This document shows, piece after piece, positions 18,961 through 47,573 of a DNA stretch of 47,573 nucleotides. The position numbers were made by a program, and so were the translations under genes. Under the pieces are notes generated by a model. That model was not told the origin of the DNA and did not search any database. It saw nothing but the letters and a program-made list of their open reading frames with translations. Location: positions 1 to 47,573 of IMG/VR virus record IMGVR_UViG_3300046739_000271. The stretch is one strand, 5' to 3'. Source of the DNA: a virus. Taxonomy: Duplodnaviria; Caudoviricetes. How positions within the stretch are numbered: the stretch's first letter is position 1; each line of letters opens with the position of its first letter.

Positions 18961-19461
18961 ATGCGTTGTCTCTTGTTCCTGTTCCTCGCCCCGGTTGCTC
19001 AGGCTGCGGATATCGGGAGTCCCGTCCCGCAACCCACGGGCGACCCGAACGCCGACATCGTTCGCATCGTCGGCTACCTGGAGAAATCGGAGGCCCGCGC
19101 CGCCGACCTGTCCGCCCGGCTTGCGGCGCTCGAGGCCCGCGTCAGCCACGGCGAACAGTTCGCCGCCCGCATGGCCGGGTACAAGCCGCTCAACCCGGCG
19201 GTCGCCGTACCGGCCCAGCCGCCCGTGGGGGTGGCGGCCGGCGTCCCCCCTACCATGCCGGACACACTTGCCCCACCTGCGGGGGTAGTCAGTACGTCAT
19301 CGCTGCTTACTTACCCAATGGTCAGCACGTACACGTATGCGCCCGCGATGGCACCGCATGGCGGCACTAGGGGCGGTCCGCTCGGCCTTGGCATCCTGCC
19401 GCGGTTGATGGGCGGGTGCGGTGGCGGGAGTGGCGGCGGTGCGTCCTATGGCGGCGGGTGA
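18961..19461 (+). CDS. Exported protein, possibly with a frameshifted alternative C-terminus
   Basis: AGGAG SD, signal peptide, short coiled coil. Confidence 0.7.
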   Translation: MRCLLFLFLAPVAQAADIGSPVPQPTGDPNADIVRIVGYLEKSEARAADLSARLAALEARVSHGEQFAARMAGYKPLNPAVAVPAQPPVGVAAGVPPTMPDTLAPPAGVVSTSSLLTYPMVSTYTYAPAMAPHGGTRGGPLGLGILPRLMGGCGGGSGGGASYGGG

Positions 19462-19498
19462 AGCTAGGAATTGGCCCCGGTCGGGGCGAAGGGAAATC

Positions 19499-19837
19499 AT
19501 GAACACCACCCTCGAACGCGAGTCAGCTACCCTAGGTCTGTCGCTGCCGGGCGTCGACCCGCTCATCATCCAACAACTCATCGGCGAGCTGATCGGACTT
19601 CTGCAAGGCTGCTTTCCCGATCCAACGCCGGACGCCGCCCTTGAATGGGTCAATTCGGGCGGAAGTCGGTACGGGTTCATTGGCCAGTGGATGTGGCGGC
19701 GGACCGTTAGCAGGGCCGTCGCGCGGGCGTGGACCGGTGACCGGGCCGTCGTTGGGATCGTTCAGGACGCAGTTCTACGCCGGCTCCAGTCGGGAATCAC
19801 TCGGTCGACGTTAATGGCCCTGTACGCGGGAGGATGA
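19499..19837 (+). CDS. Hypothetical protein
   Basis: ATG at 19499 after a purine-rich SD; packing. Confidence 0.65.
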   Translation: MNTTLERESATLGLSLPGVDPLIIQQLIGELIGLLQGCFPDPTPDAALEWVNSGGSRYGFIGQWMWRRTVSRAVARAWTGDRAVVGIVQDAVLRRLQSGITRSTLMALYAGG

Positions 19838-19838
19838 C

Positions 19839-21149
19839 GTGCGTCGGCTCGCCCTAGTATTCCCGTTCGTGGCCGTGACGCTGGCCCTCGTCGGCGTGGC
19901 CGCGACACCGACGCCGGAGCCGAAGATAGCCGTCCCGAAAGTGGCCGCCAACGTCTCGGCCGCGGGCCCGACAGCCGACCCGACCGAGGCGTTCGCGTCC
20001 GACGAGATGCTGACTAACGGGCTCACAACCCAAGCGGAATTCGATGCCAATTTCGATCAGTTCTCCGAATCCGCCCACGAGTTCGCCAGCGACACCGCTG
20101 AGGGTGGTCTTGGTCCGGTGTTCAATGGGGTATCTTGTGCCGCTTGTCATCCAAACGGGCACGGTTCCGGTCAACGTGAGTTACGCGCAGGCCACTTCGA
20201 CGGAACTAATTTTTCTGCCCCGGCCGGGGGTACCCTCGTTCACCTGAACGCCACCGACGCTCGCGCCGCCCAGCGACCGCTCCCCGGCTTCGATGACGTG
20301 ATTGCCGAGCGGCTGACGACCACGCTGCGTGGCCTGGCGTTCCTTGAATTCGTCCGCGACGGCGATCTGACGGCGATCCAGGCCGGCCAGACGCCCGACA
20401 TTCGCGGCACCATCATTCCGTCGGTCGTCACCACCGGCGTTAACCCGGACGGCACCTTTGCCACGGCCGCCCGGATCGGTCGGTTCGGGCACAAATGCCA
20501 GCAAGGTAGTTTGCTCGACTTCGCCGCCGACGCAGACAGAAATGAAAAGGGCCGCACGTCGCCGCTGCAACCGCTCAAGTCGCCGGCCCTGGACGGTCGG
20601 AGCCTCTACCAGTTCGTCCATCAATCGGACGGCCTGGACGATCCTGCCACGGCGGCGGCCCCGTTCGGGACCGACATTACCGCTTACACCCGCCTGATGC
20701 GAGGCCTGCCCGTCCCGCCGCGGGACTTCGCGACCCAGACCACGCCTGACGTATTGGCCGGCGAGAAGCTCTTCACGACGATCGGTTGCGCTAACTGTCA
20801 CGTCCCGACGATGACGACCGCGCCTGCCGGCTCGACCATCAACGGAGTCCCGAACGGCGTCCCGTCCGCCCTCGGGGGCAAGGTGATCCACCCCTACACG
20901 GACCTGATGACCCATGACGTGGGGACCGGGGACGGGATCGTGCAGGGTGCGGCCCCGCGGAACGAGATGCGCACGACGCCGCTGTGGGGACTTCGGAGGC
21001 GGACGCTGCTCATGCACGATGGGGCGAGCCGGACCCTGACGGACGCGATCGGCCGGCATGCCGGACAGGCGACGGGCGTGCGGGGTGCGTTCCTGTCGCT
21101 AAGTGCGGCCGATAAGGCCCGGTTGTTGGCGTTCCTGAATTCCCTGTAG
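19839..21149 (+). CDS. Di-heme oxidoreductase family protein (DHOR/DUF1111)
   Basis: Signal peptide; GLGPVFNGVSCAACH, IGRFGHK, GCANCH, PYTDLMTHDVG, RTTPLWGL, LMHDG. Confidence 0.9.
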   Translation: MRRLALVFPFVAVTLALVGVAATPTPEPKIAVPKVAANVSAAGPTADPTEAFASDEMLTNGLTTQAEFDANFDQFSESAHEFASDTAEGGLGPVFNGVSCAACHPNGHGSGQRELRAGHFDGTNFSAPAGGTLVHLNATDARAAQRPLPGFDDVIAERLTTTLRGLAFLEFVRDGDLTAIQAGQTPDIRGTIIPSVVTTGVNPDGTFATAARIGRFGHKCQQGSLLDFAADADRNEKGRTSPLQPLKSPALDGRSLYQFVHQSDGLDDPATAAAPFGTDITAYTRLMRGLPVPPRDFATQTTPDVLAGEKLFTTIGCANCHVPTMTTAPAGSTINGVPNGVPSALGGKVIHPYTDLMTHDVGTGDGIVQGAAPRNEMRTTPLWGLRRRTLLMHDGASRTLTDAIGRHAGQATGVRGAFLSLSAADKARLLAFLNSL

Positions 21150-22104: not shown

Positions 22105-22335
22105 CTACCCACCGCTACCCAAGGTCCCGCCAGGATCGGCAGGGCCCGGCGCGCGGAATCGCGGGAACCGGCGGCGAATCGGCTGGCGCTGTCCGACTTT
22201 TAATCCGTTGGTCGTGGGTTCGAGTCCCACCGCCTTCATTCGGATCAAGTCGTCACCCGCCCGCCACTTCGGATTCCGGCCGGCTCTCCGATTCCGCGCG
22301 TTGCCCTTCGGGCATGGGTAGCAATATTACCCATG
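22105..22335. promoter_or_regulatory. Putative attP arm sites and flanking inverted repeats
   Basis: YTACCCA at 22105, 22115, 22315 (inverted) and 22327; perfect 12-bp IR at 22150-22161/22289-22300. Confidence 0.6.
22195..22238 (+). other. attP core: 3' half of tRNA-Lys(UUU)
   Basis: GA-CTTTTAA-TCCGT anticodon loop, T arm GTGGG-TTCGAGT-CCCAC and 3' acceptor strand, with no 5' half; 95 bp before the integrase. Confidence 0.9.
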
Positions 22336-23472
22336 GCATGGAGGCCGAACGTGTCCAGTCCCATCCCAGCCCTGCGCTACCACCGCCCGACCCGCCAGTA
22401 TTACGTCTGGATCGGCCGGCTCAAAAAGCGGAAGACGTTCGGCTCAGACCCCGACGTCGCCCGCCGCCAGTACGCCCAATATCTCGCCGCCGCCGGGGGG
22501 CCTGCTGTTCTCCCGTCCCCCGACTCGATGACCGTCAACGACGCGTTGGAGGCCTACCGGCGATTCGCCAAGACACGCTACACGGATCGCCGGGAGGCCA
22601 ACCGCATCGGGACCGCCCTCGCCGCCGTGGCCGAATTGTATGGTCCCCAGCCGGCCGCCAGCTTCCGGGCGAAAGCACTCCGCGAGGTCCGGGGACGTCT
22701 CTTGACGGGCGGCAAAGAGCCGCGGAGCCGGCGGTACATCAACAAACTCACCAGGTCGATCCAGACGGCCTGGCGCTGGCTGGCCGGCGAGGAACTCATT
22801 CCGGCGGAATCGGCCGCCTCGGTGTGCGTGGTGCGTGCTCTGGGGCCGGGGGACGGTGGCCTGGAACGGGAGCCGGTCCTGCCGCCGCCACCCGGTCTGG
22901 TCGAGCAGACAACCCCCTTCCTGCCGCCCACGGTCGCGGCGATGGTCCGGGTGCAACTCCTGAGCGGGATGAGGCCCGGCGAAGTCTGCCGAATGCGGGC
23001 GGGTGAAGTGAGCACCGATTCGACCTCGCCGGTGAAAATTCCCGGCATGGGCCGGGCGGTGGCCGCGGTCGACGTGGCCGGGTGCGCCGTGTGGATGTAC
23101 GTCCCCGGCTCGCACAAGACGATCCGTCGGGGCAAGGTCCGGGTCGTGCCGATCGGCCCACGGGCCCAGAAGGAATTGTCGCCGTACCTCATCGGTAAGG
23201 GGGCTGGCGAGACCGTGTTTGCGACGTCGGCCGGGCGTTCATACCGGTCGGATAGCTACGCCAAGGCAGTCGCCCGGGCGTGTGCCAAGGCCGGGGTTGA
23301 GCCGTGGAGTCCGATCCAGCTGCGTCACGCGGCGGGGACGGAGGTGGCCAACCGGTTCGATGACCACACGGCCGCGTCGGTGCTGGGCCATGCGGCCGGC
23401 AGCACAGCGACGCGGGTCTATGTCGAGCAAAGCGTGCGGAAGGCGGCCGCGGCGGCGGCCGAAATGGGGTGA
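22333..23472 (+). CDS. int: Tyrosine integrase
   Basis: GMRPGE (R), HKT (K), QLRH, LGH and TRVY catalytic set. Confidence 0.93.
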   Translation: MAWRPNVSSPIPALRYHRPTRQYYVWIGRLKKRKTFGSDPDVARRQYAQYLAAAGGPAVLPSPDSMTVNDALEAYRRFAKTRYTDRREANRIGTALAAVAELYGPQPAASFRAKALREVRGRLLTGGKEPRSRRYINKLTRSIQTAWRWLAGEELIPAESAASVCVVRALGPGDGGLEREPVLPPPPGLVEQTTPFLPPTVAAMVRVQLLSGMRPGEVCRMRAGEVSTDSTSPVKIPGMGRAVAAVDVAGCAVWMYVPGSHKTIRRGKVRVVPIGPRAQKELSPYLIGKGAGETVFATSAGRSYRSDSYAKAVARACAKAGVEPWSPIQLRHAAGTEVANRFDDHTAASVLGHAAGSTATRVYVEQSVRKAAAAAAEMG

Positions 23473-26986: not shown

Positions 26987-27171
26987 GCGGATGGAAGCGG
27001 ATAAGGTGATCCGCCACGCGCCCACCGTGGCCCATAGGTGGGAGTTGGGAAATCGACCGGGCTGACGAGCGCCGCCGACCTGACTTCCACACGCTCCCCG
27101 GCCGCCGAGTCCGCGGACGTTAGGCACTGGTCGGGAATGAGGGCGAGCCGGTTCAACTCCGGCCATCCGTG
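26987..27171 (+). ncRNA. tRNA-like RNA 2 (185 nt, large inserted domain)
   Basis: Acceptor GCGGATG/CATCCGT; D-like GCGGAT-AAGGTG-ATCCGC; T arm GCCGG-TTCAACT-CCGGC. Confidence 0.75.
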
Positions 27172-27188
27172 ATCGAAGGGTGTGGCTG

Positions 27189-27431
27189 ATGATTTGCTTC
27201 CACGGCACTAATCGGAAGAACGCCGAATCTATCCTGCAGGAAGGGTTCCGGGTCGGGACGTGGTTCGCAATTGAGAAAGAAAACGCAATCAAGTTCGGCG
27301 GTCCTTACGTATTTGCGGTCAAACTCGACAGGAACTTGTTGGGTCCCGGTGTCTCATGGCAGTTCCATACGCTCATACCGATCCCGGCGAGCGCAATTGT
27401 CTCTTGCCATGAGATCGCGGGGCGAAATTAA
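27189..27431 (+). CDS. Mini ADP-ribosyltransferase-fold protein (HGT motif)
   Basis: CFHGTNRKNAESILQEGF...TWFA....A..F; 80 aa. Confidence 0.65.
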   Translation: MICFHGTNRKNAESILQEGFRVGTWFAIEKENAIKFGGPYVFAVKLDRNLLGPGVSWQFHTLIPIPASAIVSCHEIAGRN

Positions 27432-27527
27432 TCAGTGTGAGACGTGCCGCGTGCGCGGTGCGGGGCCGTCGGCGTGCTTTAACCAAGTTTCTTGGTCGAA
27501 GGGCGAACGCCCGGCGGCTCATTTGAC

Positions 27528-27666
27528 GACGAACGCAGGCCGGCGGGTGGCCGGCTCACAGACCTGAGAAGCCGCTGTGTCTGAAGGTGCCCTTTGGGGC
27601 CGACGCAGGTACGCCGCATGGTCGCGGCTATGGATGCGGCCAGCCGTTCAACTCGGCCGTTCGTCA
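27528..27666 (+). ncRNA. tRNA-like RNA 3 (8/4 acceptor/T fold)
   Basis: GACGAACG/CGTTCGTC 8-bp stem; GGCCGGC-GGGTG-GCCGGCT arm; T arm GCCG-TTCAACT-CGGC. Confidence 0.75.
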
Positions 27667-27741
27667 ATGGGTCCGGTCGGTCGTGCTGCATGATGCAACT
27701 CCTGGGTGAGCCGGCCGGACCCTCTTTTCACGGGTGACTCC

Positions 27742-27930
27742 ATGGACGCCGACACGCCGACGGTTCCCGACCTGGACCTTGACAGCGAATTGACCAAGGC
27801 TGCCACGAAGATGGCGGTTGACGCTTGGGATGAGATGTCAACGGACCTGCAACTCCGGATCACGTTCGACTGGCTGGTCGAGCGGTTTCGCAAGATTCTT
27901 CTCGCCCGCAGCAAGGAGAAGCGGTCGTGA
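27742..27930 (+). CDS. Hypothetical protein
   Basis: GGTGA SD; GTGA overlap with the next gene. Confidence 0.55.
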   Translation: MDADTPTVPDLDLDSELTKAATKMAVDAWDEMSTDLQLRITFDWLVERFRKILLARSKEKRS

Positions 27931-28628
27931 TTGGTGAAGGCGAGGCCCTAACTCGGTCTGTGCTGATGTCGTTGGAGGATGACGCCCCGCGGCTAGTGTA
28001 CGCCGACTGGCTGGATGAGCGGGCCGACTGCGAACTAGCCTCAAGCCTCCGGCTCGGCTCGCTGGTGACCCGGAAGCCGTCCGTTCGGGGCGACGGCGGC
28101 GACGGCGGCGGCGGCGGCGGCGGCGACGGCGGCGGCGGCGGCGGCGACGGCGACGGCGGCGACGGCGGCGGCGGCGGCGGCGGCTTCGGCGACGGCTACG
28201 GCGGCTTCGGCGGCGGCGGCGACGGCTACGGCGGCTTCGGCGGCGACGGCTACGGCGGCTTCGGCGGCGGCGGCTTCGGCGGCGACGGCGACGGCTCTAA
28301 TTCAGAGGTCACGTACATGGTCGATGGACTCTACATCATCACGCTTCCGGGCGGCTGGAATCCATATGTGGTGATCGGTTGGGTTGAAGTCGTGGGCCTC
28401 GAACTGACGGTGCGAGGCGGCCGATGTATCCGGCGATTCGGCGCGAACCAATCCCTCTCCGTCTTGGCCGCCAAGGGACCGGCCAGCGATACGCAACTCC
28501 TGCCACCGTCCGAAGAGGAGTTGTTCTGGCGTCCCAACGTCGGCCGCGCTATCGCGGCGAATCCAAAAGCGTGGAAGAAGGAATGCCCGCGGCCGAAGAC
28601 GCACGCGCTGGCCGCAATGGAGGATTAA
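27927..28628 (+). CDS. TIGR02996-like domain, Gly-rich repeat and DUF6948-like domain
   Basis: EDDAPRLVYADWLDE; GGDG/GYGGF tract; RCIRRFG....LSVLAAKGP..TQL. Confidence 0.75.
   Translation: MIGEGEALTRSVLMSLEDDAPRLVYADWLDERADCELASSLRLGSLVTRKPSVRGDGGDGGGGGGGDGGGGGGDGDGGDGGGGGGGFGDGYGGFGGGGDGYGGFGGDGYGGFGGGGFGGDGDGSNSEVTYMVDGLYIITLPGGWNPYVVIGWVEVVGLELTVRGGRCIRRFGANQSLSVLAAKGPASDTQLLPPSEEELFWRPNVGRAIAANPKAWKKECPRPKTHALAAMED
28089..28295 (+). repeat. GGC/GAC/TAC/TTC low-complexity coding repeat
   Basis: Runs of GGC codons punctuated by GAC, TAC and TTC. Confidence 0.95.
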
Positions 28629-28631
28629 ACC

Positions 28632-28835
28632 GTGCTAGTGTTATCCCGCAAGGAATCCGAGTCTCTGAAAATCGGCCCCGACATCACAGTGATGGTCGTC
28701 TCGGTCGAGCGGGGCAAGGTCCGGCTCGGTATTACCGCTCCCCGGAGCGTGCCGGTGTACCGGACCGAATTACTCGAAGTTGACCACCGGCATGACGAGC
28801 CGGTCCTGCCGCCGGAGTACGGGGGTGAGTCGTAG
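28632..28835 (+). CDS. csrA: Carbon storage regulator CsrA/RsmA homolog
   Basis: MLVLSRKESESLKIGPDITVMVVSVERGKVRLGITAPRSVPVYRTEL. Confidence 0.93.
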   Translation: MLVLSRKESESLKIGPDITVMVVSVERGKVRLGITAPRSVPVYRTELLEVDHRHDEPVLPPEYGGES

Positions 28836-28850
28836 CCACGGAGCGAGGCC

Positions 28851-29111
28851 ATGCCAACACACGAGCCGGTGAGCGATGCTACCTCGCTCGCCCGGATGGC
28901 GGACGGGTGGATCAGAATCAGGCCGCCGGACGGCGTGCGGGTGTTCCTGCGGCCCGGCGGCGGGTTTGATCTCTACTTGGACCCGGTGAGGGCCGCGGAG
29001 TGGTCAGCGATGAACCACGTGACACGGATGCGTGATCTGGTATGGCGGTCGGCCCCGTTCACGATGACGAATGGGCACGGCCTGAACGGCGAGGCGATTG
29101 AGCCGGAGTGA
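28851..29111 (+). CDS. Hypothetical protein
   Basis: GGAG/GAGG SD. Confidence 0.6.
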   Translation: MPTHEPVSDATSLARMADGWIRIRPPDGVRVFLRPGGGFDLYLDPVRAAEWSAMNHVTRMRDLVWRSAPFTMTNGHGLNGEAIEPE

Positions 29112-29139
29112 CGGTGGGATAACCGTCGTTCTGTTAAGG
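29112..29139 (+). other. dif/Xer-like site 1: CGGTGGGATAA-CCGTCG-TTCTGTTAAGG
   Basis: 11-6-11 architecture resembling E. coli dif (GGTGCGCATAA-TGTATA-TTATGTTAAAT). Confidence 0.6.
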
Positions 29140-29177
29140 TTTTGTTGAGTTGGATAGTGACCAATGGGAAGCCTTGG

Positions 29178-29271
29178 CGGATGGGTGGCGAGTGGGTGAT
29201 ACCCCTGGCCGTGCCCGCAAGCACTCACCCTCATCAGGTGGGGAAACCGGGTTCGATTCCCGGCCGTTCCA
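29178..29271 (+). ncRNA. tRNA-like RNA 4 (CAT loop; 5' boundary uncertain)
   Basis: TCACC-CTCATCA-GGTGG arm, 5-nt variable region, T arm CCGGG-TTCGATT-CCCGG; acceptor pairing imperfect. Confidence 0.55.
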
Positions 29272-29275
29272 TTAG

Positions 29276-29515
29276 CCCGACCGCCCCCGCGTGAGGTCCT
29301 CCATGCTCAGCAACCCGCGACCCGGCCAACGCGTTCGCCTGCACTACGCCAACGCGCGGCGGTCGTTCTTCGTCTACTACGGACGGTCCGGAACCGTGGA
29401 GATCGCCGGGAAAGGCCGACCGCGGAACCATTTGGTCCGGCTCGATGACGGCACGCGGGTGATTGTCCCGGCCGGTAATCTGTATCCCGACTCCCCGACC
29501 GCCCCCGCGTGAGGT
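29276..29515 (+). repeat. 22-bp exact direct repeat (29276-29297, 29494-29515) flanking one gene
   Basis: CCCGACCGCCCCCGCGTGAGGT occurs twice, and each copy supplies a GAGGT SD. Confidence 0.9.
29303..29512 (+). CDS. Small SH3/KOW-like protein
   Basis: PGQRVRL...GRSGTVE...HLVRLDDGTRVIVP.GNL. Confidence 0.65.
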   Translation: MLSNPRPGQRVRLHYANARRSFFVYYGRSGTVEIAGKGRPRNHLVRLDDGTRVIVPAGNLYPDSPTAPA

Positions 29516-29520
29516 TCCCC

Positions 29521-29778
29521 ATGAGCAACTTTATCAGCCATCGCGAAGAAGAGTTGGGAGAGACGTGCGACCGGCTCCAAACCTGGCTCGACACCTGCCT
29601 CCCTCCGGAATCTGAGTTTTACGTCGAGTTGTGCCTGACGAGGTATACGTCGGCCATTCTGATCGGTGACATCCTAGTGTGGGAGTCGGAGAACAGCCCG
29701 TGCGAGCCCACCTTCGAGAACTGCCGCGATGTGTTCCGGGAGAGGATGCAGAACTTGGCGAAGTTGATGAATCAATAA
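29521..29778 (+). CDS. Hypothetical acidic protein
   Basis: GAGGT SD supplied by the repeat. Confidence 0.65.
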   Translation: MSNFISHREEELGETCDRLQTWLDTCLPPESEFYVELCLTRYTSAILIGDILVWESENSPCEPTFENCRDVFRERMQNLAKLMNQ

Positions 29779-29782
29779 GGTT

Positions 29783-29810
29783 GGGTCGGATAGCGCCTCA
29801 AATGTTAAAT
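29783..29810 (+). other. dif/Xer-like site 2: GGGTCGGATAG-CGCCTC-AAATGTTAAAT
   Basis: The right arm matches the E. coli XerD arm at 9 of 11 positions. Confidence 0.65.
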
Positions 29811-29833
29811 TGCATGAAAGAACGACCGTCCAT

Positions 29834-30343
29834 ATGAGCCGGGGCATTCACACACTACCGAACCGTGGCCTGTCGAATGACTGGCTAACGCCGCCGTCGA
29901 TCATCCGGGCGCTTGGTCCATTCGATTTCGACCCATGTGCGCATCCGAAGCAAGAGAAGTTCAACAGGACGGCTGCCGTGATGGTTGCCCCGCCGGCCGA
30001 TGGACTTGTTGTCCCTTGGTCCGGAAGAGTCTGGCTGAACCCGCCTTACGGAAGCGAGTTGAGGCTGTGGATTGGCCGGCTTGCCCACCACGGTCAAGGA
30101 ACTGCTCTCGTCCCGTCTCGCACGGAAGTTGAATCATGGTTCTGGCCGTTCGTGTGGGAAGCGGCATCCGCGATCCTGTTCATCCGAGGCCGGCTTTACT
30201 TTTTTCGGCCTGACGGGACGACCGAAGGCAACGCTGGCCATGGGTCCGTTCTGGCGGCCTATGGAGACCTGGACGTTGAGCAACTGAAAAAAGCGGCTCG
30301 GACCAACAAGATCCCGGGTCGGCTGGTGGAGAACATCCGATAG
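29834..30343 (+). CDS. Phage DNA N6-adenine methyltransferase (Dam-type)
   Basis: DWLTPP, FDFDPCA, VWLNPPY, FIRGRLYF. Confidence 0.88.
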   Translation: MSRGIHTLPNRGLSNDWLTPPSIIRALGPFDFDPCAHPKQEKFNRTAAVMVAPPADGLVVPWSGRVWLNPPYGSELRLWIGRLAHHGQGTALVPSRTEVESWFWPFVWEAASAILFIRGRLYFFRPDGTTEGNAGHGSVLAAYGDLDVEQLKKAARTNKIPGRLVENIR

Positions 30344-30360
30344 CTGATCTTATGTTTGGT
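30333..30360 (+). other. dif/Xer-like site 3: ACATCCGATAG-CTGATC-TTATGTTTGGT
   Basis: 11-6-11 architecture; the left arm contains the methylase stop codon. Confidence 0.6.
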
Positions 30361-30365
30361 GAGAA

Positions 30366-30890
30366 ATGGCACACTTGTTCGACACCGAGCCCGAGACGCT
30401 GAGCGGGGCGACCATCAGCGAATGCGGCCTCTACCGCTACCGCCTCTGGCGGGTGTGGAACCAAGAGGCCCCGCTGATGGTGTTCGTCATGCAAAACCCG
30501 TCCACCGCGGACGCCAGCGAAGATGACCCGACCATCCGCAAGTGCATCGGCTTCGCCCGGAAGCACGGCTTCGGCGGAATTTCCGTGCGGAACGTGTTCG
30601 CGCTCCGGGCGACCGACGAGCGGGAACTATTGACCCATCCCGACCCGTTCGGGCCGGTGAACGAGGGGCACCTGATGGCCGCCCGTGCCGAGTCCCTGAT
30701 GACCCGGCTTGTCGTGGCCTGGGGGAACCGGCTGGGTGGGAGGCGGCTCCGGCATCATTACGACCGGGCCGCGGCCTGTTGCCTGACGCTCAAGCCCTAC
30801 TGTCTCGGGACCAATGCCAGCGGCGAGCCGAAACACCCGCTGTTCGTGCCCTACTCGGCTGCGTTGGTCCCCTGGCGGCACGTCGGATAA
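30366..30890 (+). CDS. DUF1643 family protein
   Basis: SECGLYRYRLWRVW...FVMQNPSTAD...DDPTIRKC..FA...NVFALRATD...AWG...PKHPL. Confidence 0.9.
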   Translation: MAHLFDTEPETLSGATISECGLYRYRLWRVWNQEAPLMVFVMQNPSTADASEDDPTIRKCIGFARKHGFGGISVRNVFALRATDERELLTHPDPFGPVNEGHLMAARAESLMTRLVVAWGNRLGGRRLRHHYDRAAACCLTLKPYCLGTNASGEPKHPLFVPYSAALVPWRHVG

Positions 30891-30894
30891 GTTT

Positions 30895-30922
30895 GGGTCC
30901 GAGAAGACCGATTATGTTCGTT
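30895..30922 (+). other. dif/Xer-like site 4: GGGTCCGAGAA-GACCGA-TTATGTTCGTT
   Basis: 11-6-11 architecture; preceded by an extra left-arm-like ACGTCGGATAA containing the DUF1643 stop. Confidence 0.6.
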
Positions 30923-30958
30923 TAGACATCACATGAGGATTGAGACGGGTGATATGTA

Positions 30959-33124
30959 ATGAGCTTGTCGCCGTGGACATTGAGAGCCAGGGGATCAACC
31001 GTCGGCATGGTGGCCGACGCATCGGAGGTCGGCCGCGCGTTTCGGCTATTCTGCGACGCCGATCACGCTTGCGAGGTCCGGGCGTTAACCACCGGTGCCC
31101 ACCGGAGCTTGGACGGCGGCGACGTTGACGGGCTGGTCGAGGCGGTCAGGGAACTTCCCTCGGGAATCGGAATCTACTTCGTCCTGAACCCGCTTCCGGT
31201 GGGGCTGGACAGTCCGGCGACGAATGCCGACGTGGTGTACCGGCGGTGGGTGTACATCGACGTCGACCCGCCCAAACCCGACGGGAAGGGCAAGTCGGCC
31301 ACCGACGCGGAGAAGGAATCCGCGGTGGCCCTCGGGCGGGAAGTGCAGGCTTACCTGGCCGCTCATGCGTGGCCGGCCCCGGTGGTGGTGGACTCGGGGA
31401 ACGGGGTGGCCCTGTACTACCTGGCCGAACTGCCCAACGACGAATTGGTCCGGGCGGCGTACTCCCGGCTGCTCGGCTTGCTGGGGAAGAAATTCGCCCA
31501 CGTCCCCGGCAGCATCGACCGGAGCGTGCATAGCGCGGCCCAGCTTGTGAAGCTGCCGGGGACGTGGGCACGGAAGGGGCCGGACGCCGACGATCGTCCT
31601 CACCGACCGTGCGAGATCACGTTCGTCCCGAAGAGTCTGGAGAAGCTGACCTTCGATGAGCTGAAGGTGGCCGGGGAAGGAGGGGACGAGAAGCCGGCGG
31701 CCGAAGGCCTGTCCAACGGGGCTAAACCGACGACGGAGGCGGCCCGACGATGCCTCGAAGCCGGGTGTGCCCGGATCGTCATGGCGGCGAAGGCCGACGA
31801 GGGGCGGAACAACGCTCTGAACGCCGCGGCCTTCGACATGGGCCGCAAGTTCATCAACGTCGGCTCGATCAGCCGCAAGGAAGTCGAGGAGCGGCTGTAT
31901 GAGGCGGCCTGCGAGTCCGGTCTGGACACGGATCACAACTGCGGGCCGGAGGGCATCCGCAAGACGATTGCCAGCGGTCTGGGTTCGGGCGAGAAGAAGA
32001 GGCCGGAGCCGATCCCGACCATCAAGGGGACGACGGCCGAGAGCAACGGGAAGCCGGGTCCGGACCGGCTGACCGTGAGCATGGCGAACGTCAAGCCTGC
32101 GGAGGTCGACTGGCTGGTGAGGAACCGGATTCCGAAGCGGTTCATCACGGTTTTTTCGGGGCGGACGGGGATCGGCAAGTCCTATGTCGCCCTAGATCTG
32201 GTGGCCCGGATCTCACGCGGCGGGGAGGTTCCGCTGGCCGGGGGTGAGAGATTCACGGCAGGCGGTACCCTCGTGCTGAGTGAAGACCCGCACGAGTACG
32301 TAATCGCTCCGCGGCTGATTGACGCCGGGGCCGAGTTGGAACGAATTCACGCCATGACCTGGGAAGCGATGGGGAAGTACCAGCTCGGGGACACGGAGAT
32401 GCTGTCGCGGGCGTGTGCGGAGGTTCCGGGCGGGGTCTCCGTGGTGATGATCGACCCGCCCACGAACTTTCTGGAGGGCACCGACGAGCACAAGAACGCC
32501 GAGGTCAGGCAACTGGTAATGAAGGTCGTTGAGTGGGCGATCGGTCGTGACGTGGCCGTGCTGTTCATCCTGCACGTGAACAAGAACGTGAAGGGCGTGG
32601 AGGCCTTGAACCGGGTGATGGGGTCGGTGGCCTGGGTGACGACGGCACGGATCGCCCATGCCTTCTGCGCCGACCCGGACGACCGGTCGCGGTCGCTCTG
32701 GGTGCCGATGAAAAACAACCTCGGGCCGCTGGAGAAGGCGATCGCGTTCCGGATCGTGAAGGACGGCGGCACGACGACGGTGCGGTGGGAGGGGGAGATC
32801 GACACCACGGCTGACGACGCCATGGGTCGGGAGCCCGACCGGAAGAGGCGTGACATCCGGGCCGGTGAATGGCTGGTGGATCAATTCCGAACACGCCTGG
32901 AATGGGAGTCGGGGGACCTATTCGAACGGGCCCGGCAGGACGGGGTGAGCCGGAACGCCATCTTCGAGGCGAAGGAGTCGCTCAAGCTGCCGCGGGCCCG
33001 GCGGCAGGTCAAGGAGAATGGTGAAGAAGTGTACATATGGTGGGTATCCGTGGACTGGCTGGCCGAGCACTCCAAGCCGCCCCGGTGTCCCACGACTGGT
33101 ACATCCGGGACACCGGGACAGTAG
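30959..33124 (+). CDS. Primase (AEP-like)-helicase (AAA_25/RepA-like) fusion
   Basis: YIDVD, VDSGNG, KLPGT, GRNNAL; Walker A GRTGIGKS, VMIDP, ILHVNK, KNNLG. Confidence 0.85.
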   Translation: MSLSPWTLRARGSTVGMVADASEVGRAFRLFCDADHACEVRALTTGAHRSLDGGDVDGLVEAVRELPSGIGIYFVLNPLPVGLDSPATNADVVYRRWVYIDVDPPKPDGKGKSATDAEKESAVALGREVQAYLAAHAWPAPVVVDSGNGVALYYLAELPNDELVRAAYSRLLGLLGKKFAHVPGSIDRSVHSAAQLVKLPGTWARKGPDADDRPHRPCEITFVPKSLEKLTFDELKVAGEGGDEKPAAEGLSNGAKPTTEAARRCLEAGCARIVMAAKADEGRNNALNAAAFDMGRKFINVGSISRKEVEERLYEAACESGLDTDHNCGPEGIRKTIASGLGSGEKKRPEPIPTIKGTTAESNGKPGPDRLTVSMANVKPAEVDWLVRNRIPKRFITVFSGRTGIGKSYVALDLVARISRGGEVPLAGGERFTAGGTLVLSEDPHEYVIAPRLIDAGAELERIHAMTWEAMGKYQLGDTEMLSRACAEVPGGVSVVMIDPPTNFLEGTDEHKNAEVRQLVMKVVEWAIGRDVAVLFILHVNKNVKGVEALNRVMGSVAWVTTARIAHAFCADPDDRSRSLWVPMKNNLGPLEKAIAFRIVKDGGTTTVRWEGEIDTTADDAMGREPDRKRRDIRAGEWLVDQFRTRLEWESGDLFERARQDGVSRNAIFEAKESLKLPRARRQVKENGEEVYIWWVSVDWLAEHSKPPRCPTTGTSGTPGQ

Positions 33125-33294
33125 TGCAGGAAGTCTATACGGGATATGGACTTCCCTACTGTCCCGGTGGTCGGGACAGTAGACCGACCGGGACAGCAGC
33201 TATCGTCCTGGTGTCCCGGTCAGTCTGAAAACCGGGACAGTAGGGAAGTCCTTATGTGGTATGAGTTTCCAGCACTACTGTCCCGGTGTCCCGG
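33105..33294. repeat. Putative replication origin: nested inverted repeats with CCGGGACA iterons
   Basis: IR pairs 33105-33140/33259-33294, 33148-33168/33231-33251 (perfect 21 bp) and 33181-33195/33212-33226. Confidence 0.8.
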
Positions 33295-38699: not shown

Positions 38700-38879
38700 C
38701 GTGAACCTATTACGTGAGAGGTTCCACGCCGGGCCGGATAAGCCGGGGGGAAGCCGGAAGCGCCAGCCGTAAAAGGATTTGACCCCTAGACATGGCCCGG
38801 GATTTCGTAGTACACTGAATAACCGAGTGCGCAACGTGGACGGGGACGGGTCCGCCGCCTTCTCTCTCATTCGGAAACG

Positions 38880-38951
38880 GGTGGGGGAGGGGAATCGAAC
38901 CCCCCTCAGTCGTTTACAAAACGACTGCTTTAGCCGCTAAGCTACCCCCAC
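38880..38951 (-). tRNA. tRNA-Thr(TGT), no encoded CCA
   Basis: Full cloverleaf: GTGGGGG/CCCCCAC, GCTT/AAGC, GTCGT-TTTGTAA-ACGAC, GGGGG-TTCGATT-CCCCT. Confidence 0.9.
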
Positions 38952-47188: not shown

Positions 47189-47573
47189 GTGGCCGTCTTC
47201 GGGCGCCGACAACCGCACGCGCCGCTGATCCTGCGCGGGCAGTTGCCAGCCCAGCCGGCCATCGGGCTCGTTCAGGTTGTCGGCCAGAAGACAAGTCAAC
47301 TCGCGGCCGACCGCTACTTCCGCCGGTCCTTTCCACCGAAGATTATTCGCGGTGGTGGCCCTCCCGCGACGGCACAATCGGTCGTCATCCAGCGTCAGGC
47401 CCAGCCGGCAGCCCGGCGGCCACATGGCCTGGCCCTCATCCTCCGCGGCGGCCCCCGGCCCTCCGTCGCTCAATCCCTGATCGTCCAGCGAATAGCGCAA
47501 CCAGCCGCCCGGCGTCCCCACGGACTTGCGGTCACGATCCGGGGTGGCGGGCCGCCAGCCGTTGGCGAGTCGC
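47189..47573 (+). CDS. 5' part of junction-spanning Arg/Pro-rich repeat protein (continues to 741; about 332 aa)
   Basis: GTG at 47189 after a GAGGAG SD. The frame (MAVFGRRQPHAPLILRG...) is open and in phase with frame 1 at position 1. Confidence 0.8.
   Translation, partial: MAVFGRRQPHAPLILRGQLPAQPAIGLVQVVGQKTSQLAADRYFRRSFPPKIIRGGGPPATAQSVVIQRQAQPAARRPHGLALILRGGPRPSVAQSLIVQRIAQPAARRPHGLAVTIRGGGPPAVGES
47447..47573. repeat. 127-bp terminal overlap, identical to 1-127
   Basis: Exact match to the window start. Confidence 0.97.

Follow-up and report, generated by a model that had tools for sequence, protein, structure and literature searches.

Dif modules and IMEX arrays are already well known. 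In the pdif or dif modules of Acinetobacter plasmids and chromosomal islands, small accessory genes lie between nonidentical 28-bp sites with variable cores, and no dedicated recombinase is present (PMC5790767, PMC9455709, PMC12907356, PMC7399989). According to PMC7399989, pdif sites are "mostly in opposite orientations"; some direct pairs also occur, the one active pair described shares its core, and inner positions 8 to 11 and 18 to 21 are termed critical (PMC5790767). HigB-HigA is typical dif-module cargo (PMC9455709). IMEX arrays at dif, as seen with CTXphi, TLCphi, Vibrio inoviruses, and DJR phages, consist of tandem units between same-direction dif-like hybrid sites and arise by successive host-Xer insertions, and noncanonical arms can protect them against excision (PMC9226527 and PMC12715192); moreover, a XerC-first, replication-resolved route exists (PMC9226527). 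Here, we describe an array of four sites in a tailed phage which, by their sequence, are imperfect same-direction copies of planctomycete dif.

The window, by which we mean the whole stretch of DNA analyzed (47,573 nt), is a complete circular phage genome with a GC content of 65%; its first 100 bases are repeated at 47447, and closure of the circle was confirmed by a contig in metagenome run X1. The 24 matching runs listed by a DNA search are soil, rhizosphere, or root metagenomes; 14 of them are possibly the source of the window, and none is an RNA run. The phage is temperate; its gene products include a large terminase, a tyrosine integrase, and a Mu-type portal, as well as CsrA, a sigma factor, HTH proteins, DUF1580, and a TIGR02996 protein. 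The features of interest, in window coordinates, are as follows.

22197..22238, plus strand: predicted attP core, the 3' half of tRNA-Lys(TTT), with an exact match in planctomycete genome G254
22333..23472, plus strand: phage tyrosine integrase, 34 bits against a XerC profile with a cutoff of 335
28632..29111, plus strand: upstream flank, a CsrA-like gene and an 86-aa ORF
29112..29139, plus strand: site 1, dif-like (XerC-type arm, core, XerD-type arm), starting 1 nt past the stop of ORF 28851-29111
29179..29271, plus strand: tRNA-like sequence, called tRNA-Ala(tgc) by ARAGORN, with only the T-arm convincing
29276..29305, plus strand: first copy of a 30-bp direct repeat, whose end falls in the start codon of ORF 29303
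29303..29512, plus strand: 69-aa ORF, no family match, 34 database matches at E<=0.001
29494..29523, plus strand: second copy of the 30-bp direct repeat (93% identical), whose end falls in the start codon of ORF 29521
29514..29541, minus strand: candidate fifth site, inverted, which overlaps the start codons of ORF 29521 and whose XerD-type arm is poor
29521..29778, plus strand: 85-aa ORF, no family match, three homologues (69-76%)
29783..29810, plus strand: site 2, dif-like by the profiles, the most degenerate (3 changes in 8 inner positions)
29834..30343, plus strand: phage N6-adenine methyltransferase (PF05869, phrog_111), the only gene between sites 2 and 3
30333..30360, plus strand: site 3, dif-like, its right arm equal to that of Isosphaeraceae MAG site L129 and its left arm ending in the methylase stop
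30366..30890, plus strand: DUF1643 protein (PF07799), the only gene between sites 3 and 4
30880..30890, plus strand: extra XerC-type half site, the best left-arm-only score in the genome, ending in the DUF1643 stop
30895..30922, plus strand: site 4, dif-like, its right arm identical to that of host-order site L516
31007..33124, plus strand: downstream flank, a primase-helicase-type replication gene (AAA_25)

An earlier note, made from the letters of this DNA alone, had stated that the phage has its own integrase, and this is borne out: judged by its profile score, the enzyme is not a Xer, and a tRNA attP lies beside it. The 42-nt tRNA-Lys(TTT) stretch upstream of the integrase gene was matched with at most 2 mismatches in 4 of 301 Planctomycetia genomes, and G254 combines its exact match to the attP core with 11 TIGR02996 matches. 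In the profile scan of the phage genome, the tRNA-Lys attP scored as no dif-like site. Since the phage has an integrase and a tRNA-Lys attP of its own, it likely does not integrate via the dif-like sites; rather, it likely integrates at the tRNA by its own enzyme. Four of the five genome-collection loci with primase homologues were planctomycete and, taken together, these loci, the attP match in G254, and TIGR02996 point to a planctomycete as the likely host. No match beyond 14 nt was found between 41 CRISPR spacers and the phage, a terminase search returned one distant match in 121 genomes, and the phage genome holds three KOPS, too few to judge.

The four 28-bp sites of 11-6-11 geometry that the earlier note had described, with their arms, their common direction, and their spacings of 671, 550, and 562 bp, were all recovered as stated, and their 6-bp cores are indeed unlike (0 to 3 of 6 bases identical pairwise). 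The note had proposed a weight-matrix scan of the phage genome; with leave-one-out profiles, every held-out site ranked first of 95,089 positions (both strands), scoring 16.4 to 18.6 bits against 12.1 to 13.8 bits for the next best position. A profile of 18 host dif sites ranked the phage sites 1 to 4, and a phage-independent profile of three published dif sites ranked them 1, 2, 3, and 5; with either profile, four such matches within 2 kb arose in 0 of 200 block shuffles. Furthermore, the four sites were within the phage's top five for every host-built profile set tried. With a pooled profile of 89 host sites, sites 3 and 4 exceeded any shuffle, and the expected number of matches per shuffled genome was 0.03 for site 2 and 0.11 for site 1; sites 1 and 2 are thus modest singly, and support for both depends on clustering. 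Each site consists of an 11-bp XerC arm, a 6-bp core, and an 11-bp XerD arm resembling host dif, and several such sites bracket accessory genes in an array without a recombinase. None of the four is canonical: the inner positions 8 to 11 and 18 to 21 carry 1, 3, 1, and 1 mismatches at sites 1 to 4, a kind of deviation seen in 3 of 89 host sites in a set that was itself selected by pattern. We consider it highly probable, on these sequence comparisons, that the four sites are Xer-type.

As the earlier note had also observed, the sites lie at gene boundaries. They start 1, 5, -10, and 5 nt from the end of a stop codon, all within 10 nt, a proximity shared by 3.6% of the positions in the region when a hand-chosen gene set is used. 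The stop codons of the methylase and DUF1643 genes do fall within left-arm or left-arm-like sequence, as the last 3 nt of the site 3 arm and of the extra arm at 30880-30890, respectively; this extra arm begins 15 bp before site 4. No further scoring copies were found at other operon starts or at the many other gene joins of the phage genome. The inverted candidate at 29514-29541 has 0.09 expected matches per shuffled genome; it is uncertain, because the codons that it overlaps are partly conserved in three homologues, and it may be a coincidence.

A genome-wide dif survey failed to predict dif for Planctomycetes (PMC3025954); planctomycete dif was located by the present work. Because the pattern first used to search host genomes derives from the phage sites, the match between phage and host is partly circular; the position at the terminus and the published-dif profile are not circular. 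This pattern matched 133 of 151 genomes of the phylum, often once and with a recurring AT-rich core, and the dif motif was found in 59 of 61 relatives of G254, reversed-pattern controls not being near zero for either search. A refined pattern, for which the reversed control was near zero, matched 60 of 61 genomes of the order of G001, at about one copy per replicon and with differing cores; likewise, the complete genomes G190 and G287 have an own core for each replicon. The expectation in the earlier note that planctomycete dif would lie near the terminus held clearly in two of three genomes. The motif of G080 is at the terminus, where GC skew and KOPS polarity switch, and that of G182 is at a KOPS switch (17 plus and 1 minus before it, 2 plus and 19 minus after it); G190 is noisy, with the same KOPS trend and no clear skew switch. 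Two Xer genes, XerC and XerD, were present in 5 of 5 planctomycete genomes searched. The note's description of the sites as dif/Xer-like therefore stands in the sense that they match the dif of the likely host phylum. A back-to-back double dif was seen at the terminus of one planctomycete group. The literature searched, which covered few subscription journals, held no report of planctomycete dif or of double dif.

Comparable arrays occur in planctomycete genomes, reached here via closely spaced pattern matches only and scored with a host-only profile. Within about 40 kb of one G462 contig (C17), all of the 8 sites found are on the same strand and have unlike cores, and further single-strand arrays with unlike cores were found in G462:C6 (7/7), G482:C17 (4/4), and G534:C20 (3/3); G196:C6, G196:C4, G214:C3, G514:C46, and G403:C40 hold arrays of mixed orientation. 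Left-arm variants of phage sites 3 and 4 recur in host arrays. The cargo of the host arrays includes PIN and HigB toxins, AbiEii, kinases, methyltransferases, and IS, and on a 95-kb contig of G196, a same-direction pair brackets a HigB-HigA pair. No tyrosine recombinase was found among the 66 and 26 host-array ORFs scanned, apart from one control ORF that came from a different, single-site locus. A direct pair in G055 was not counted, as it lies within a longer duplicated flank beside an IS91-type transposase.

In G462, a 1,326-bp segment, 98.5% identical, is present in two of the arrays; in both copies, one end falls within a site's XerD arm, and the other end abuts a site in one copy only. 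Moreover, a leader of about 140 bp plus a XerC arm occurs in five copies, which continue into three different cores and each into a different right side. This host leader is absent from the phage. The comparison within this one host-order genome, with its hybrid junctions, is evidence that such dif-like sites act as junctions in a planctomycete.

The earlier note had taken the phage array to be shuffled by host XerC/D and had suggested a search for excised forms in reads and for related phages with breakpoints at the sites; neither search upheld active shuffling. Assembled contigs from 8 runs, including three deep ones, showed no excision joint at any site; assembly into contigs loses rare forms, and three of these 8 are possible sources of the window. 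The array was intact on a single contig in X1 (75x) and X2 (27x), and X4 (65x) had one break, at the second 30-bp repeat. The joints in X1, X2, X4, X16, and X24 avoid the sites and, circular closure excepted, have short sides; cover in X16 to X19 was partial, owing to a depth of about 4x.

Bracketing sites were found around none of the cargo homologues checked, at 81 viral loci, at 30 host loci of DUF1643, and at 10 where the 69-aa ORF occurs. Likewise, an upstream site cluster was found at none of 44 primase-homologue loci from three collections, many of which have short flanks; at the closest of them (57%), unrelated genes stand in the array's place. These 44 loci came from an alignment search, and a single-protein primase search of viral contigs gave nothing. 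Another 23 host primase loci with 1.5-kb flanks held no array, and locus L088 has three mixed-orientation matches, downstream of its primase homologue. A DNA search of annotated phages and plasmids yielded only DUF1643-region matches among those listed. Thus, no array-bearing relative of the phage was found. In searches for phage arrays by near-perfect sites, two matches occurred at 3 of 120 loci in the first scan and at 2 of 29 in the third; the second gave at least two at 12 of 120, one of these being three matches in a 5-kb contig. The first two scans took in 8 and 15 of 64 parts, with 40 short-flanked loci each; since cover was partial and the 16-base pattern misses all four phage sites, these counts do not prove that phage arrays are rare.

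The earlier note's account of the enclosed genes, namely, two ORFs, a methylase, and DUF1643, is correct. The accompanying tRNA-like RNA fared less well: it is called by ARAGORN, it matched no tRNA family of Rfam, and its folding z-score was 0.02. Within the first interval, the 30-bp repeats hint at exchange of another kind. Two contigs of 151 nt in X24, at a depth of 2, have a match to the 69-aa ORF and part from the phage sequence either at the repeats (29276 and 29494) or just beyond them; these points of divergence are not at dif-like sites. A one-residue variant of the same ORF occurs on 5 other contigs, and the clusters of the neighboring genes lack such a full-length variant. One cargo gene thus seems to move at a separate 30-bp repeat; the data faintly suggest that a second kind of exchange, based on the repeats, operates within the first interval, and the interval between sites 1 and 2 may not always move whole. 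Two identical viral contigs carry a match to the core of the 30-bp repeat, in another context.

How, then, might the array have arisen? We consider it moderately probable that the sites are junctions left by host XerC/XerD inserting small gene modules successively into a phage-borne dif-like site. A small circle with one dif-like site would enter the phage-borne site via host XerC/XerD and thereby generate direct repeats, and the module unit would read core and XerD arm, gene, and XerC arm, a layout that fits because two stop codons end exactly at XerC-type arms. Exchange would begin with XerC and be resolved by replication, and would presumably tolerate unlike cores here. Because all cores differ and each site carries one to three changes in the inner eight positions, poor mutual recombination and rare excision are predicted, in agreement with the joint-free runs. 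The array is therefore probably locked or a relic rather than actively shuffled, with its cargo locked in and exchange rare.

Other readings of the same sites deserve weighing. The main rival, unlikely in our estimation, is that the joints are ordered and "barcoded," such that each site recombines only with the site of equal core in a prophage or in a relative infecting the same cell, and a gene is swapped by a double Xer crossover, not added as a circle. Unlike cores would block deletion within the array and permit like-for-like exchange, and the own core of each replicon in G190 and G287 is in keeping with such pairing; however, a relative with the same ordered cores was not found, and the G462 leader, which with its XerC arm joins different cores, fits insertion better than a fixed order. 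It is improbable that the sites are not junctions at all and instead bind a protein (host XerC/D, a phage regulator, or the sigma factor) controlling the early operon. All of them are indeed at gene starts or ends in one operon of a phage that encodes possible regulators, and no movement was seen, but both arms match host dif at exact spacing, the other operon starts are without copies, and no sigma-70-type promoter was found in 27000-31500. We also give little credence to the view that only sites 3 and 4, around DUF1643, are true dif-derived junctions, site 1 being a worn fragment or mimic of a type I-G CRISPR repeat and site 2 a chance match or heavily decayed. Of the last 23 nt at the 3' end of a planctomycete type I-G repeat, 19 are matched by site 1, among them 7 of the 8 positions that the dif consensus leaves free (no host dif site matches more than 4 of these 8; n = 71), the stem is kept with one compensatory pair, and the modest single scores of sites 1 and 2 lean the same way. 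This comparison was made post hoc, and the full repeat matches at only 22 of 37 positions, tied with an unrelated position; in addition, the match is antisense to the repeat's inferred transcription, the handle end is missing, and the dif match of site 1 runs past the repeat's end. Racrs are described as solitary repeat units (PMC10651486), and site 1 holds no full repeat in the transcribed sense. Moreover, sites 1 and 2 both ranked first in the leave-one-out scans, and both lie at stop codons.

The earlier note had spoken of an integron-like cassette array, and the likeness survives as an analogy only, as neither an IntI nor an attC fold was found. That the sites are of the integron attC/attI type, or are used by the phage's own integrase, is very improbable. 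Their right arms do contain the GTT core that is used by integron sites as well, and site 3 can pair in a fold with a stretch lying 31 bp upstream (P = 0.03 when taken alone), but no site has a significant fold (z of -1.5 to +0.8), the combined inverted-copy P value is 0.07, and an integron integrase is absent among the 69 ORFs scanned; use by the phage's own integrase is further opposed by the failure of its attP to score as a site. A 59-bp spacing at sites 1 and 3 had prompted an attC reading, which was abandoned after testing. Scarcely credible, finally, is chance, by which AT-rich stop and ribosome-binding sequence would mimic dif in a GC-rich genome. Gene joins do have a higher AT content, and two of the left arms share bases with codons; nonetheless, the cluster never arose in the shuffles, the many other gene joins do not score, and two right arms agree with host sites at all 11 bp. 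Chance is refuted for sites 3 and 4 by the shuffles and the pooled host profile.

If successive insertion by host XerC/XerD is correct, tailed phages can gain accessory genes at defined joints via the chromosome-resolution enzymes of their hosts. Phage mosaicism would thereby gain a site-specific route, and dif modules, in a form with same-direction sites and unlike cores, would reach beyond Acinetobacter plasmids into Planctomycetota. A broader proposal, which we offer tentatively and regard as possible rather than likely, is that planctomycete phages, plasmids, and chromosomes have in common an integrase-less gene-capture platform on which housekeeping XerC/XerD stack modules one-directionally at attenuated, unlike-core dif-like sites; the phage would be a working miniature of it, set in the early operon and carrying a methylase and other host-conflict genes.

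In the literature searched, with few subscription journals covered, a same-direction dif array inside a tailed phage is not reported, and the locus differs from each of the described systems that it resembles. Unlike IMEX arrays, it lies inside a phage and not at chromosomal dif, has no perfect dif at either end, and is made of units of 0.5 to 0.65 kb without replication genes. The phage as a whole, moreover, has an integrase and a tRNA-Lys attP, whereas IMEX lack an integrase and use a dif-like attP, and it shows no folded single-strand attP made from two inverted dif-like halves as in the CTX type. The single dif-type dimer resolution sites of plasmids and phages are the same kind of site, near-perfect single copies being common in viral contigs (an estimated 510 stretches or so), but here there are four imperfect copies in 1.8 kb and not one good one. 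With integrons, the array shares compact, promoter-poor, same-direction gene units between short sites; it differs in its dif geometry and in having neither IntI nor an attC hairpin with paired R and L boxes. The pdif modules differ in that the four main phage sites are all direct, with one weak inverted candidate at 29514, and in that inner positions are not intact in the phage. Occurrence of the same module in other contexts, ending at sites, was not found for the phage cargo and was found in the G462 host arrays. The carrier, too, is distinct: in place of Acinetobacter plasmids and chromosomal islands, it is a tailed temperate phage, likely of Planctomycetota.

Around the phage array, the bases upstream of the left arm agree at seven of eight positions between sites 2 and 4 (window 29775-29793 and 30887-30905), and the TT preceding the GGGTC start is also present in some host dif sites. 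Two consecutive ORFs each have a start codon that forms the end of one copy of a 30-bp direct repeat (window 29276-29305 and 29494-29523), which is a possible second module boundary. Ahead of the array, a TIGR02996 domain is followed by a long low-complexity Gly/Asp tract (window 27927-28628).

Dif-like sequences were also found in other viral contigs and, in several arrangements, in planctomycete genomes, as listed below.

Dif-like features outside the phage genome
L388:3563-5026, viral contig: pair of dif-like sites, same direction
G254:C25:26209-26280, genome matching the predicted attP core: double dif, back-to-back near-perfect sites
G182:C1:3228289-3228382, planctomycete genome: double dif at the KOPS polarity switch
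L687:10130-11430, with further loci L688, L689 and L690: type I-G CRISPR repeat array
G462:C17:110347-150188, planctomycete genome: same-direction dif-like array
G462:C6:2239751-2266950, same genome: same-direction dif-like array
L541:4180-16355 and L614 (G196:C6), planctomycete contig: pdif-like cluster

The two sites in viral contig L388 (27 kb) lie 1.4 kb apart and have unlike cores. Near-perfect single dif sites are common among viral contigs, with about 510 stretches estimated from one 16-base pattern; these single sites are represented by loci L356-L474.

Among relatives of G254, 22 of 30 fetched loci carried a back-to-back pair of near-perfect dif sites, with the XerC arms facing inward, a spacing of 25 to 71 bp and two cores that were never identical (loci L659-L686, besides the G254 and G182 examples). 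The G182 pair is located where KOPS polarity switches. No report of such a double dif was found in the literature searched, which covered only a minority of subscription journals. In several host loci, two sites were merely 57 to 90 bp apart. Furthermore, the 37-nt type I-G CRISPR repeat of four planctomycete genomes is dif-like in its 3' part, which runs from the inner XerC arm through 6 bp to the start of the XerD arm.

Elsewhere in the phage genome, an inverted repeat of 64 bp (86%), which itself includes several short repeats (window 33105-33294), sits between the primase gene and a replication-initiation-family gene; this region is a candidate replication origin. A di-haem oxidoreductase (DHOR, PF06537) gene (window 19839-21149) immediately precedes the integrase region, and metagenome run X2 contained numerous sequence variants at window 19179-19814. 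A tRNA-Thr(tgt) gene (window 38879-38951) lies on the minus strand, and its surrounding genes run the opposite way.

In G462, the dif-like sites form long arrays, all in one direction, in which a leader of ~140 bp recurs ahead of the XerC arm (loci L621, L602, L603, L625 and L615); one module is common to two of these arrays. The 95-kb contig G196:C6 carries a pdif-like cluster of at least six sites in mixed orientations, one pair of which flanks HigB-HigA.
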